Source of the DNA: Candidatus Helarchaeota archaeon
GTDB taxonomy: Archaea > Asgardarchaeota > Lokiarchaeia > Helarchaeales > RDOG01
Assembly: GCA_019058315.1 (NCBI GenBank)
Contig: JAHPZH010000006.1
Coordinates: 128,001 to 192,000 of the forward strand
Direction of reading: 5' to 3'
DNA length: 64,000 nucleotides
Position 1 is the stretch's first letter, and each line of letters opens with the position of its first letter. The position numbers and the translations under genes were made by a program. Shown in pieces: positions 7,701 to 11,016 of this stretch. The notes under the pieces are model-generated. The model did no database searches, had not been told where the DNA came from, and saw only the letters and a program-made list of their open reading frames with translations.

Positions 7701-8408
7701 TTAAGTCAATTTAACGACAGCTGTTCCAGCTATTGATTGCCGTTCTCTCTTCATTTCAAATTCTATAATTTTATTTGAATTTTCTTTTTTTAATTCAACA
7801 ACTATTTTTTCATTTGGATTTGCCCAAATCTTGACGGCTCCTTCTTCAATACTTAAAAAATTTACTTTCTCAACACCTTCAGCTTCGAAATCAATTATTT
7901 TTTTGATATCTTTAATTTTTTCGTCTTCAAACTTGTAATTTAATTTAAAATTCAATTTTGCATTTAATAAATTCTTTTTTAATGAATCCTCATCAATTTT
8001 TTCATCTTTTAATAATAATTGTCCAAAGATAAGTGGTGTATAGGTGTATTGTTTTAATTCTAAATTCACAGTTTTATCGGTCTCATTTTTTTCTATAATT
8101 TTTGCTCGACTAACAATTGTATCTTTGGGACGACAACTTCCAATAAATTTTATTTCGATTTTTTCAATAGCTTCTGATGAATTCGCCCAATCTGTTAAAG
8201 CTTGTTGCATATAAGCTGCAAAAAATAATCCATGAGCGATAACACCATTTAAACCAGTCCGCCATGCTGCCCAATCGTCCATATGAATGGGATTTCTATC
8301 ACCAGATGCATAACCATATTCTCTTATCATCTTACGATTCAAAGATTCTTTAACAAGTGGTGTGATTTCATCCCCTACTTTAATTTCATTAAACTTTGGT
8401 AGAACCAA
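7701..8408 (-). CDS. MaoC-family (R)-specific enoyl-CoA hydratase/3-hydroxyacyl dehydratase with ~90-aa insertion
   Basis: Hydratase-2 motif YGYASGDRNPIH plus GVIAHG. Confidence 0.85.
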   Translation of the reverse strand: MVLPKFNEIKVGDEITPLVKESLNRKMIREYGYASGDRNPIHMDDWAAWRTGLNGVIAHGLFFAAYMQQALTDWANSSEAIEKIEIKFIGSCRPKDTIVSRAKIIEKNETDKTVNLELKQYTYTPLIFGQLLLKDEKIDEDSLKKNLLNAKLNFKLNYKFEDEKIKDIKKIIDFEAEGVEKVNFLSIEEGAVKIWANPNEKIVVELKKENSNKIIEFEMKRERQSIAGTAVVKLT

Positions 8409-8515
8409 AAAATCATCTCTGTAAATTTAATTAAATTCATTTAAAATAAAATAGAGTAATTTAAATTATAAAATATTTTTGATTTTTTTATAAAATTAAA
8501 AAAAAGAAAATATAA

Positions 8516-9199
8516 TTATTTTATAGCTACAGTTCCAGTTCCTACTATTGAGTCTCTATTCCTAACTATTCCGAATTTGAATTTTTCACCCTTCTTTTTA
8601 CCGATAAATTCTGCAGTTACTTTATCCTTGCCTGCTCTAAGCCAATCGCGTACAAGAGGCTCATCAGCCATTAAATCTTTCCGACGAGTGTCAATACCTT
8701 TTGGCTCAAATATTAATTCGTGTTTCTTTTCACCTGTCGCCGTAAAATCAATATTGATTTTAATTGGAGTCTCTGCCAATACCTTTAGGATTTCTTCATC
8801 GCTCAAATTAGATTTTGCTTTACCTCTTAAATAATAGGTTTTTGTTGTGGTAATTATATCTAAATCAGCCAGTTTTTCGCCGTCTTTTTCATATTTCTTT
8901 GTAACAATGGCCTTAAATTCTACAATATCTCCAGGTCTGGTCATACCAGTCATTCGTCCACCGTATTTCCTAACATTTTCGGCGCCAACCCAATCAACTA
9001 ACATTTTACCAATCATCGCATGAGTATATAATCCATGTGCTATTACTCCTTTATTGAATAAACCGGCAAATTCGTCCTGATGAATAGGGTTCTGATCTCC
9101 TCCAGCGTCAGCATAAACTTTAAATTCTGCTCTCATTAAAGGTCCGTATGTCATTGAAGTTCCCATTTCTCCTTCTTTAAGTTCATCCCAATTTACCAT
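8516..9199 (-). CDS. MaoC-family dehydratase paralog with ~90-aa insertion
   Basis: YADAGGDQNPIH and GVIAHG; start reassigned to ATG 9199 (MVNWDE), which has a GGAGATG SD and avoids overlap with the upstream gene. Confidence 0.85.
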   Translation of the reverse strand: MVNWDELKEGEMGTSMTYGPLMRAEFKVYADAGGDQNPIHQDEFAGLFNKGVIAHGLYTHAMIGKMLVDWVGAENVRKYGGRMTGMTRPGDIVEFKAIVTKKYEKDGEKLADLDIITTTKTYYLRGKAKSNLSDEEILKVLAETPIKINIDFTATGEKKHELIFEPKGIDTRRKDLMADEPLVRDWLRAGKDKVTAEFIGKKKGEKFKFGIVRNRDSIVGTGTVAIK

Positions 9200-9210
9200 A
9201 ATATCATCTC

Positions 9211-9681
9211 CTAATCTTGAAGGTTGAAACCTCCTTTTTGACAAACTACTCCGATTTCAGAAATACAGACTGTCTTACCAACTTTTGATTCATCGCTACT
9301 CGCCACAACTTTTGATACAGCTTCTAAAGCCATAACAAGCATTCCATTTGATTTTACTTCGATACTTTTTATACTCGGAACAGTTTCTACCTTATCTCCA
9401 TCCTTAAGAGGTGGGGCACCTTTTGGAAAAGTATATACTTGTCCTCCATGCAGAATTGCTAAAGGATTGGTAATAATACCCGATCCATCCGCATTTTTTG
9501 CACTCCCAGCACCTCCAAGAGCTGGAAAAACGTACGCATTCGCATAAGCTGGATGTGCAATGGGATCATCTCCAAAAAATTCAGGTTGTGTAGCTCCAAT
9601 GCTTTCAGCAAACGCAACTAATTTTTTCTTCTTAATTTTAAATTTAGTTCCTTTCAAAGTTTGACCAATTAATCCCGACAT
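9211..9681 (-). CDS. MaoC N-terminal-like (HadA/FAS1-type) non-catalytic hot-dog subunit
   Basis: FAESIG..P and ILHGGQVYTF..PL..GD motifs; lacks DxNPIH. Confidence 0.75.
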   Translation of the reverse strand: MSGLIGQTLKGTKFKIKKKKLVAFAESIGATQPEFFGDDPIAHPAYANAYVFPALGGAGSAKNADGSGIITNPLAILHGGQVYTFPKGAPPLKDGDKVETVPSIKSIEVKSNGMLVMALEAVSKVVASSDESKVGKTVCISEIGVVCQKGGFNLQD

Positions 9682-9959
9682 TGTTAATCAACTCAAAATT
9701 ATTTTTTATTTGCTAATGTTTTTCAATACTATTTTGAGATTTTAATTTTTTTTGTCATATTTCGAATATATGAAGTCAAGGAAATGGGAAGATTTCTCTA
9801 AAAAAAATATTAAAAAGTAAATACTTTTGAAAAAATTTTTATCCAACTAATCAAATATTATATTTGGATGAAGGAATAATCTTCTTCATCGAGGACCAAT
9901 TGAAAAAATGATGATATTTGGTGCAAAAAAAGAAGTACATCCGGACAGAAACTACTACT

Positions 9960-10160
9960 AATCCATAGATGGGCTCTTCTTGATGATAATGGTGAGTGCC
10001 TAGAGATGAAAGGAAGTCAGCTTACCCAGGTGGAATACAAGTAGTTTCCTTTAAGCTGGTGGTAATCCCTACATGAGAGAACTTGCCAGAGGATTGGACT
10101 AATGTCTAACAGTGAAGGTAGGAGTTAGTGTTTAGGGGTACAGCCAGCTCCCCTTTTTTT
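9960..10160 (+). ncRNA. Candidate structured non-coding RNA / orphan IS110-type non-coding end
   Basis: About 45% GC by hand count (9941-10153) in an AT-rich intergenic context, no good ORF, several complementary segment pairs, ends in a T7 tract. Identity is inferred. Confidence 0.45.
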
Positions 10161-11016
10161 AATTGACAAGGATATCAAGACAAACATGATTTACATGGGG
10201 ACGATAAGATTTTATAAATTCTATATGGTCTAATTTAGCCTTTTTATTCATTTCTTTGTTAATAGAAGAAACATCTTCTAATAAAATTTCGGGAGGATCT
10301 GAATCTCTTAAAAGTCCTTCATAATGAATTATGCATTTTTCTGGATTTAATACCTGAAATGCAGTGGGTAATGCATCTTTAGGGGATGGCAATAATCCCA
10401 TAATTATTCTATCTGCTTTTTCTTTGATTTTCAAAGCCTCAGTCTTACAATCTCCTAAAATTGGAATAATTTTATCCGAAACTTTATTAATTTGAATATT
10501 TTCAACTAAGTAATTATAAGCAATTGGATTCATTTCAAAAGCAAATATCTTTTTTGGATTAGCTAATCTTGCAATATTAAGGCAAAAATAACCTATTCCA
10601 GCAAAAAAATCAAAAATAATTTCATTTTCTTTAACTAATTTGGGATATCTTTTTCGCTCATTTATGTTTCCTTTAGCAAACATTATTTTACTTACATCCA
10701 GTTTATACAAGGTCCCATGTTCTTTATGAATTGTTTCAGTTGACTTTCCGACGACTAATTCAATTTGTGGAGTTCGAAATTGACTATAAATTGCACCTTT
10801 ATTGAGACAAATAGCATCGCAATTCGAAACAATATTTTGAACAGCTTCAGCAATAACTTTCTTATTTTTCCATAATTGGTTCTTAAGGTTTAATATAACA
10901 ATTGTACCAATTTGTTGGAAACCCGAAGGAAGGAATTTCATCTCATTTTCATTTAAAATTCCTTTTAACGCTTCTCGCAACTTTTTTTTAAAAGAACTCT
11001 TCACTTCAATAACCAA
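10159..11016 (-). CDS. taw2: Trm5/Taw2-family tRNA-modifying SAM-dependent transferase (wyosine pathway)
   Basis: IHKEHG..YKLDVSKIMFAKGNINER, DFFAGIGYF, ADRIIMG, IIHY. Confidence 0.8.
   Translation of the reverse strand: MVIEVKSSFKKKLREALKGILNENEMKFLPSGFQQIGTIVILNLKNQLWKNKKVIAEAVQNIVSNCDAICLNKGAIYSQFRTPQIELVVGKSTETIHKEHGTLYKLDVSKIMFAKGNINERKRYPKLVKENEIIFDFFAGIGYFCLNIARLANPKKIFAFEMNPIAYNYLVENIQINKVSDKIIPILGDCKTEALKIKEKADRIIMGLLPSPKDALPTAFQVLNPEKCIIHYEGLLRDSDPPEILLEDVSSINKEMNKKAKLDHIEFIKSYRPHVNHVCLDILVN

Follow-up and report, generated by a model that had tools for sequence, protein, structure and literature searches.

What is the GC-enriched element, apparently without coding function, that interrupts an AT-rich region in the genome of a Candidatus Helarchaeota archaeon? 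The element lies in a window of 64,000 nucleotides (nt) from contig 6 (JAHPZH010000006.1) of assembly GCA_019058315.1, an archaeal assembly of 5.8 Mb in 12 contigs that is 94% complete and contains archaeal large-subunit (LSU) and small-subunit (SSU) ribosomal RNAs (rRNAs). Unless another contig is named, all coordinates given here are positions in this window. A preliminary description of positions 9960-10160, made from the sequence by eye, had called the element an orphan structured RNA, possibly the bridge-RNA-like end of an IS110 insertion sequence without its recombinase. Its account of the composition of the locus agrees with our own. The GC fraction is 0.42-0.45 over 9950-10150 and 0.21-0.29 in the flanks, no open reading frame (ORF) of 30 or more amino acids is found on either strand within 9847-10158, the element ends in a run of seven Ts, and no transposase gene is adjacent, the neighbours of the 477-nt intergenic gap that holds the RNA locus (9682-10158) being MaoC-like dehydratase genes and a gene for a Trm5/Taw2-like methyltransferase. 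As for what the element is, the analysis described below leads us to consider it very probably a host-encoded archaeal box H/ACA pseudouridylation guide RNA.

We are highly confident that the unit spans approximately 9866-10160 of the forward strand, about 295 nt, and consists of three tandem box H/ACA hairpins (Table 1). The conserved unit thus starts some 95 nt earlier than the preliminary boundaries of 9960-10160, which cover only hairpins 2 and 3, the 3' two-thirds of the RNA. Every hairpin has a lower stem (P1), an internal-loop pocket, an upper stem (P2) of 6-7 base pairs (bp), tandem G·A pairs and an ACA box, and an ACA or AUA box is conserved among the homologues. The G·A motif comes after seven positions in hairpin 1 (GA/UGA), after 6 bp and one bulge in hairpin 2 (GAUGA/GAUGA), and after 6 bp and an A·A apposition in hairpin 3 (GA/UGA); its 3' (A)UGA is kept in the alignments, except that GGAU takes its place in hairpin 3 of the three orthologues from one family of relatives (f3). 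The distal G·A pair stands 8-9 positions from the base of P2, where the published rule places it 9-10 bases away (PMC7075261). In hairpin 1, 14 nt separate the start of the 3' guide from the ACA. In hairpin 2 the distance from guide to ACA is 13-14 nt, and in every homologue inspected the ACCC of this guide precedes the ANA box by the same 13 nt. Hairpin 3 is atypical in having 17 nt from the top of its pocket to the ACA. The transcript most likely covers approximately 9866-10160 and begins within the 9866-9880 leader, because a promoter-like box (consensus aaaaa.ttTttta) is found at a fixed distance from the leader in 71 homologues. The leader, which is GGGAAAA..AUGAUGGAAUAA among the homologues and GGAUGAAGGAAUAA in the window, resembles a C box. 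At the other end, a run of five or more Ts occurs no more than 45 nt past hairpin 3 in 32 of 72 homologues.

Table 1. Positions of the predicted guide RNA, its parts and the genes on either side
Feature	Position	Strand	Basis or remark
Putative BRE/TATA-like box (B recognition element/TATA), A/T-rich	9830-9844	+	about 22 nt 5' of leader; promoter role predicted from sequence
5' leader, GAUGA..GGAAUAA motif, C-box-like	9866-9880	+	71-homologue consensus Gggaaaa..atga.ggAa.A
H/ACA hairpin 1	9881-9939	+	covariation and LSU complementarity
Hairpin 1, P1	9881-86/9930-35	+	
Hairpin 1, 5' guide	9887-94	+	CAUCGAGG
Hairpin 1, P2	9895-9901/9915-22	+	
Hairpin 1, kink-loop (K-loop)	9902-14	+	GA...UGAUGA
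Hairpin 1, 3' guide	9923-29	+	
Hairpin 1, ACA	9937-39	+	
H/ACA hairpin 2	9962-10039	+	lower-stem covariation and LSU complementarity
Hairpin 2, P1	9962-66/10030-34	+	
Hairpin 2, 5' guide	9967-75	+	AGAUGGGCU
Hairpin 2, P2	9976-81/10010-16	+	
Hairpin 2, symmetric tandem G·A motif	9982-86/10005-09	+	GAUGA/GAUGA
Hairpin 2, 3' pocket strand	10017-29	+	
Hairpin 2, 3' guide	10024-29	+	ACCCAG
Hairpin 2, ACA	10037-39	+	
H/ACA hairpin 3 inside outer helix	10054-10149	+	covariation
Hairpin 3, outer helix	10054-59/10144-49	+	
Hairpin 3 itself	10066-10142	+	
Hairpin 3, P1	10066-71/10133-38	+	
Hairpin 3, 5' guide	10072-81	+	CAUGAGAGAA
Hairpin 3, P2	10082-87/10117-22	+	
Hairpin 3, apical part with tandem G·A pairs	10088-10116	+	
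Hairpin 3, 3' guide	10123-32	+	AGUUAGUGUU
Hairpin 3, ACA	10140-42	+	
Oligo-T (T7) run	10154-10160	+	read from sequence; probable archaeal transcription terminator
MaoC-like dehydratase gene	9211-9681	-	one side of gap
Trm5/Taw2-like methyltransferase gene	10159-11016	-	other side of gap

The stems are supported by covariation, which was measured in model-based alignments of approximately 70-76 distinct sequences per hairpin and compared with 500 shuffles and with slid controls. In hairpin 1, 90.0% of the cells are paired versus 73.4% in the shuffles, and 11 of 12 pairs have changed on both sides; in hairpin 2 the values are 94.2% versus 70.9%, with six of eight pairs changed on both sides, and all six pairs of its lower stem have changed in this way; in hairpin 3 they are 90.3% versus 81.4%, with nine of 12. 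The percentage paired and the covariation score observed were reached in none of the 500 shuffles, other whole-structure measures were reached in 0-19 of them, and the slid controls gave 15-52% paired. Alignments that have been fitted to models favour the structure; nevertheless, the stems of the three hairpins are, on this comparison of sequences, secure, since the effect is large and the pair types are many and distinct. While the stems covary, the sequences of the pockets stay fixed. A covariation check had been proposed in the preliminary description, and all three hairpins covary strongly, but the pairings it had drawn (10009-22 with 10142-56, 10021-26 with 10117-22, those within 10026-59, 10063-68 with 10091-96, and an alternative set) match, when judged by position, no helix that covariation supports. 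The GGTAGG at 10117-22, for example, pairs with CTTGCC at 10082-87 and not with 10021-26.

Homologues of the RNA were sought by BLAST in 40 relatives, and one match, in relative G006, was found on inspection to be a genuine, full-length homologue. Seven short BLAST matches (30-40 nt) to 9890-9937 were set aside as chance, the four that were inspected being unrelated and of low complexity. A motif search added relatives G003 and G005, both of family f3, and five genomes of family f4; a class-wide motif pattern with two mismatches returned mostly noise, as control counts were similar, yet it exposed true f3 and f4 homologues. Nine homologous sequences align over approximately 300-340 nt, all with the same three hairpins and the promoter-like box and most with the 3' T-run. 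The conserved blocks in this alignment are short single-stranded motifs, and the stems between them differ in sequence and remain complementary. An exact pattern of three conserved motifs and two gaps, searched in a collection of 185,579 species, matched 91 species-level genomes, whose titles are nearly all Promethearchaeota, Promethearchaeia, Hel-, Hermod-, Hod- or Odinarchaeota, Sifarchaeum or "uncultured archaeon"; two titles are bacterial. The records L090 (DATKTW010000174.1) and L123 (DATKTP010000169.1), which carry the Asgard small RNA (sRNA) and are titled as bacterial metagenome-assembled genomes of Nanopelagicaceae and Deferrimicrobium, are probably mislabelled or mis-binned.

Covariance models recover hairpin 1 in 73, hairpin 2 in 80 and hairpin 3 in all of 81 loci, and the order and orientation of the hairpins are constant. 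Since the pattern search had fixed the motifs of hairpins 2 and 3, the search was repeated from the hairpin 1 model alone. This model matched 39 of 151 genomes sampled across the phylum, comprising 23 of 25 from family f4 and members of four other families, and almost every phylum genome that it matched yielded a single copy. Hairpin 3 is next at 28 of 29 loci found in this way and hairpin 2 at 24 of 29. These loci keep GAGAG, GUUAGUG, GGGCUCUU and ACCC, the first two being nearly invariant.

In order to predict targets, the guides were compared with the LSU rRNA of the same genome, which is complete (C5:105496-108654, minus strand). The 16S rRNA (G000:C12:50-897) is cut at a contig end and covers model positions 4-828 only, and the 16S rRNAs of three relatives were therefore used in the target scans. 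In hairpins 1 and 2 alike, the complementarity to LSU rRNA is bipartite, totals 12-13 bp and leaves a UU or UA of the rRNA unpaired in between. In hairpin 1, CAUCGAGG, together with GCAA as 3' guide, forms 12 Watson-Crick pairs with GGCUUGC[UU]CCUCGAUG, the unpaired UU being at LSU U2706; only one of 300 shuffled guides equalled this anywhere in the LSU and SSU rRNAs. The hairpin 1 of relative G006 also forms 12 bp (6 + 6) at the U2706 site, using a different 3' guide, GCAAGC. From an alignment to the E. coli sequence, we take U2706 to correspond to position 2496 of E. coli, where helix 89 ends. This uridine of the peptidyl-transferase centre is, with little doubt on our part, the predicted target of hairpin 1.

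In hairpin 2, the invariant ACCC(AG) on the 3' side and (G)AUGGGCU as 5' guide are complementary to GAGCUGGGU[UU]AGACCGUC at LSU 2795/2796, and again only one of 300 shuffled guides did equally well. The predicted target is probably U2795 or U2796, corresponding to E. coli 2585 or 2586. The hairpin 2 guides of family f3 (AACCC and ACGAUGGGC) pair one base further and leave UA unpaired, a register that points to U2586. Of eight hairpin 2 variants without the AG, five have an extra A that is able to pair with U2585; in three other variants the extra A occurs together with the AG. Changes of U to C in the 5' guide convert a G·U pair with G2592 to a G-C pair. These natural variants behave as would be expected if the predicted pairing were real.

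Hairpin 3 can pair with helix 69, where GUUA/UAAC and GAGAG/CUCUC form 9-10 bp in GUAAC-UAUAA-CUCUC and leave 4-5 target bases unpaired. It seems reasonably likely that its target is the helix 69 loop, at U2130 and/or U2132 (E. coli 1915 and 1917), an assignment made by analogy because the guide arms are near-invariant throughout the phylum, the ACA spacing is 17 nt and there is published precedent. A site at E. coli U1921 (4 + 4 bp) was judged weaker than an atypical "UNUN" mode at 1915/1917, and other matches to GUUAGUG, in 16S rRNA and elsewhere in the LSU rRNA, lack the second arm. In the relatives checked (four in total, with domain V from three and helix 69 from two), the three target segments of the rRNA do not differ.

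A family of guide RNAs with this arrangement is known from other archaea. Three H/ACA motifs are contained in each of the sRNAs Afu4, Pf7, Pab40 and Pho40 (Muller et al. 2008, PMC2377435). Motif 1 of the Pab40 type guides pseudouridine (psi) 2588 of Pyrococcus abyssi 23S rRNA, motif 3 guides psi2016 in stem-loop 69, and motif 2 of Afu4, Pf7 and Pho40 is expected to act at the equivalent of 2678, which is modified in Haloarcula; the targets of another RNA, Pab35, are 2549, 2697 and 2672 (PMC2377435). The Asgard RNA resembles this family (RF00064, HgcG, of Archaeoglobus and Thermococcales) in its three tandem H/ACA motifs, its kink-turns (K-turns) or K-loops and its ACA boxes, and also in a motif 1 whose 5' guide, CGAGG, is found beside P2 and would be directed at an identical position, the uridine where helix 89 ends. 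If P. abyssi numbering is offset from E. coli numbering by 92, as the Pab35 targets and the E. coli RluB, RluC and RluE sites indicate, then 2588 is E. coli 2496 and 2678 is 2586, the same sites as those of hairpins 1 and 2. The predicted order of targets, 2496, 2586 and stem-loop 69, likewise corresponds, the third being assigned here only by analogy. Hairpins 1 and 2 also conform to the structural rules described for these RNAs, namely a helix of 5-6 bp, a distance of 14-15 nt from ANA to U, and an unpaired UNN that is tolerated in Pyrococcus (PMC2377435).

At 30.1 bits (E = 7e-5), the Rfam HgcG model aligns over its full length to the orthologue in Helarchaeota Hel_GB_A; hairpin 1 is matched by its motif 1 and hairpin 3 by its motif 3. 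A permissive Rfam search of the window gave a weak HgcG match at 9827-10044 (11.4 bits, E = 0.93), which pointed in the right direction. The gathering score of HgcG is 77 bits and is reached neither by the window nor by the best orthologue, the one with 30.1 bits. In contrast to the known members of the family, the Asgard RNA is AT-rich and belongs to a different phylum, its hairpin 3 is contained in an extra outer helix so that the ACA lies at an internal junction, the 3' pocket strand of its hairpin 2 has 3-7 extra nt, and it has a conserved 5' leader motif. Judged by this comparison, the RNA is a divergent Asgard (Promethearchaeota) orthologue of the HgcG/Pab40 family that falls below Rfam's own threshold.

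A second likeness is to sR-h45 of Haloferax volcanii, whose 5' stem-loop (SL1) guides psi2605 in a UUU tract and whose 3' stem-loop (SL2) makes both psi1940 and psi1942 of helix 69, with an unpaired UNUN that is 17/19 nt from the ACA (Majumder et al. 2020, PMC7075261). Of the two sites, the UUU tract, which lies between helices 90 and 93, comes first and helix 69 second, as predicted for hairpins 2 and 3. An AUA or ACA box follows the 5' stem-loop of sR-h45, and AUA follows hairpin 2 in some Asgard orthologues, while the 17-nt ACA spacing of SL2, a guide whose activity has been shown by experiment, is that of the Asgard hairpin 3. However, sR-h45 has two stem-loops joined by a 56-nt linker and is without a counterpart to hairpin 1, and the likeness is drawn from architecture and not from sequence. 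Among eukaryotes, yeast snR191 and human U19 guide helix 69 sites (PMC7075261, PMC2377435). Eukaryotic H/ACA small nucleolar RNAs (snoRNAs) share with the proposed Asgard guide the RNA-guided formation of pseudouridine at the same conserved LSU positions by the Cbf5/dyskerin machinery, but they are two-hairpin H-box/ACA RNAs that use Nhp2 without K-turns and have their specificities on separate snoRNAs; the likeness is functional. Another of these snoRNAs, snR46, serves yeast psi2865, which corresponds to E. coli 2496. No paper on Asgard H/ACA sRNAs was found in the literature searched, in which "H/ACA" is unsearchable as one word, and this is weak evidence of novelty.

The proteins that such an RNA would require are encoded in the same genome, which has a Cbf5 gene (TIGR00425 equivalog, 461 bits versus a cut-off of 238) as well as genes for Nop10, Gar1 and L7Ae. 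We infer the transcription of the RNA, its assembly into a ribonucleoprotein and the modifications that it directs from the known family. L7Ae would bind the K-turn or K-loop of each hairpin, and Cbf5-Nop10-Gar1 would bind the lower stem and the ACA box. The two strands of the internal loop would base-pair with LSU rRNA and flank a uridine left unpaired, the substrate that Cbf5 would turn into pseudouridine. Hairpin 3, with its 17-nt ACA spacing, would act by the UNUN mode.

Several results weigh against a guide RNA with these targets. A whole-window Rfam search at gathering thresholds matched no family. The folding energy of the single sequence shows no gain over shuffles (z = -0.06 on the plus strand and +0.89 on the minus strand), and the evidence for structure is for this reason comparative and not thermodynamic. 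In the set of 81 loci, the conservation of ATGGGCTC, AYGAGAGA and GWGTTAGTG arises partly by construction, these being the search pattern. The complementarity of hairpin 3 to helix 69 (4-5 + 5 bp) is no better than that of shuffled guides. In hairpin 2, 3-7 guide nt are unpaired between P2 and the ACCC guide, and the GGCU of the 5' guide can pair internally with AGYC, so that the borders of the pocket and the choice between U2585 and U2586 are uncertain; among the hairpin 2 targets tried with GGCU/AGYC kept paired, no site was consistent between species. Lastly, when GGGC is taken as guide, LSU U2764, the equivalent of E. coli U2554 in the A-loop, ranks first for the RNA of the window and for each of the five f4 sequences.

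This last result raises the possibility, which we think unlikely, that hairpin 2 of Lokiarchaeia-type RNAs guides modification of the A-loop uridine instead of, or besides, U2585/2586. At the A-loop, the 5' guide AAUGGGC would form 7 bp with GCCCAUU and the 3' segment CAG(Y)(U) 4-6 bp with (G)(G)CUG, leaving UAC unpaired, and an unpaired UNN is permitted by the Pyrococcus precedent in PMC2377435. On the other hand, the distance from CAG to the ANA box is 17-19 nt and varies between species, whereas that of ACCC is constant, and the f3 and f21 orthologues are without the CAGY segment. Variants with ACGGGC keep the pairing with G2592 at the U2585/2586 site and would break the pairing with the A-loop. 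The equivalent of U2554 is pseudouridylated in eukaryotes, and it is not among the archaeal sites cited here for comparison. The orthologous motifs in Afu4, Pf7, Pho40 and sR-h45 have been assigned to the equivalent of U2586 (PMC2377435, PMC7075261). The A-loop register was demoted on two counts, its ACA distance, which varies and is too great, and the ACGGGC variants, and U2585 or U2586 is retained as the preferred target of hairpin 2.

Two elaborations of the proposed guide RNA are similarly doubtful. In Lokiarchaeia-type orthologues, that of the window included, the CAGY(U) inserted ahead of ACCCAG lengthens the 3' pocket strand of hairpin 2 and could give it a dual-register pocket, for 2585/2586 and 2554. 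The second elaboration is that the leader and a CUGA tail could close the entire RNA with an additional K-turn. In many f4 orthologues (e.g. L138, L116, L103, L070 and L087) the last ACA is followed by an AUGCUGA tail containing the D box-like CUGA, which the window's own tail is without. The C-box-like leader and such a D-box-like tail might form a terminal C/D-like K-turn that binds L7Ae, as reported for Pab21.

The location of the element, in a 477-nt gap between an operon of MaoC-like dehydratases and a Trm5/Taw2-like gene, would also suit some other structured RNA, such as a cis-regulatory leader of the genes next to it or an element antisense to them, or else a degenerate protein gene. 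We consider this very improbable. Both neighbours are on the opposite strand, and the RNA's own T-run precedes the convergent gene; the flanking genes differ by lineage while the RNA is conserved; and there is no ORF, the changes being compensatory in the stems and not codon-like. ARAGORN found neither a tRNA nor a tmRNA in the window.

We give almost no credence to an IS110-type bridge RNA or an orphan, non-autonomous IS110 guide cassette, for which only the general look of the locus speaks (GC-rich, non-coding and structured, with large internal loops and without a neighbouring ORF on the same strand), because DEDD_Tnp_IS110 (PF01548) has no match in the 5.8-Mb, 94% complete genome, the element is single-copy in this genome, the unit is conserved vertically, with covarying stems, in 91 Asgard species genomes and across several families of the phylum, its loops match rRNA around uridines, not IS ends, and its ACA boxes stand at H/ACA spacing, it has K-turn motifs, and an orthologue aligns significantly with HgcG. 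The resemblance to leaders upstream of archaeal IS110 genes that the preliminary description mentioned was not reproducible. Its fallback, a trans-acting guide or a host non-coding RNA, came closer in that the element appears to be a host-encoded structured guide, although one of the long-known box H/ACA class and not of a new one. The Infernal/Rfam comparison that it suggested as a check told both ways, in that the window stays below all gathering scores and HgcG matches the Hel_GB_A orthologue.

A false lead is thereby removed, there being no orphan bridge RNA at this locus, and an annotation gap is filled, as Rfam is silent here on an RNA that at least 91 Asgard species genomes carry. Its distribution suggests that a three-motif guide for the end of helix 89, the U2585 region and helix 69, which are among the most conserved rRNA pseudouridines, is older than the split between Euryarchaeota and Asgard archaea. 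The predicted targets provide testable rRNA modifications for the closest prokaryotic relatives of eukaryotes, and the three covariance models with their alignments could serve as the seed of a wider Rfam family. The RNA itself is ordinary in kind and mechanism, an unannotated and divergent relative of a known RNA family.

A number of minor observations were made during the analysis. Genome G024 has a second hairpin-3-like H/ACA motif (L156:691-772, minus strand; 48 bits) with GAGUUAGUG and an ACA, approximately 500 nt downstream of a complete three-hairpin RNA; a single-hairpin paralogue produced by duplication is a possible explanation. The 16S and 23S rRNA genes of the genome studied here are on different contigs, and they may be unlinked, or their operon may have been broken in the assembly. 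In relative G064, the 23S rRNA (L055/L057, G064:C216) diverges from all the others immediately after GACCGUCGUGAGA into unrelated AT-rich sequence, which suggests an rRNA intron or insertion near E. coli position 2600, and the LSU rRNA of G069 has an insertion of approximately 30 nt between helix 90 and the A-loop. Upstream of the RNA are three consecutive MaoC/hot-dog dehydratase-like genes (7701-9681, minus strand). Within the gap, an AT-rich small hairpin, UUUUCAAUACUAUUUUGAGAUUU, at 9720-9742 of the plus strand resembles Rfam CRISPR-DR45 weakly (21 bits, E = 0.51), a similarity probably due to chance or to the terminator of the upstream operon.

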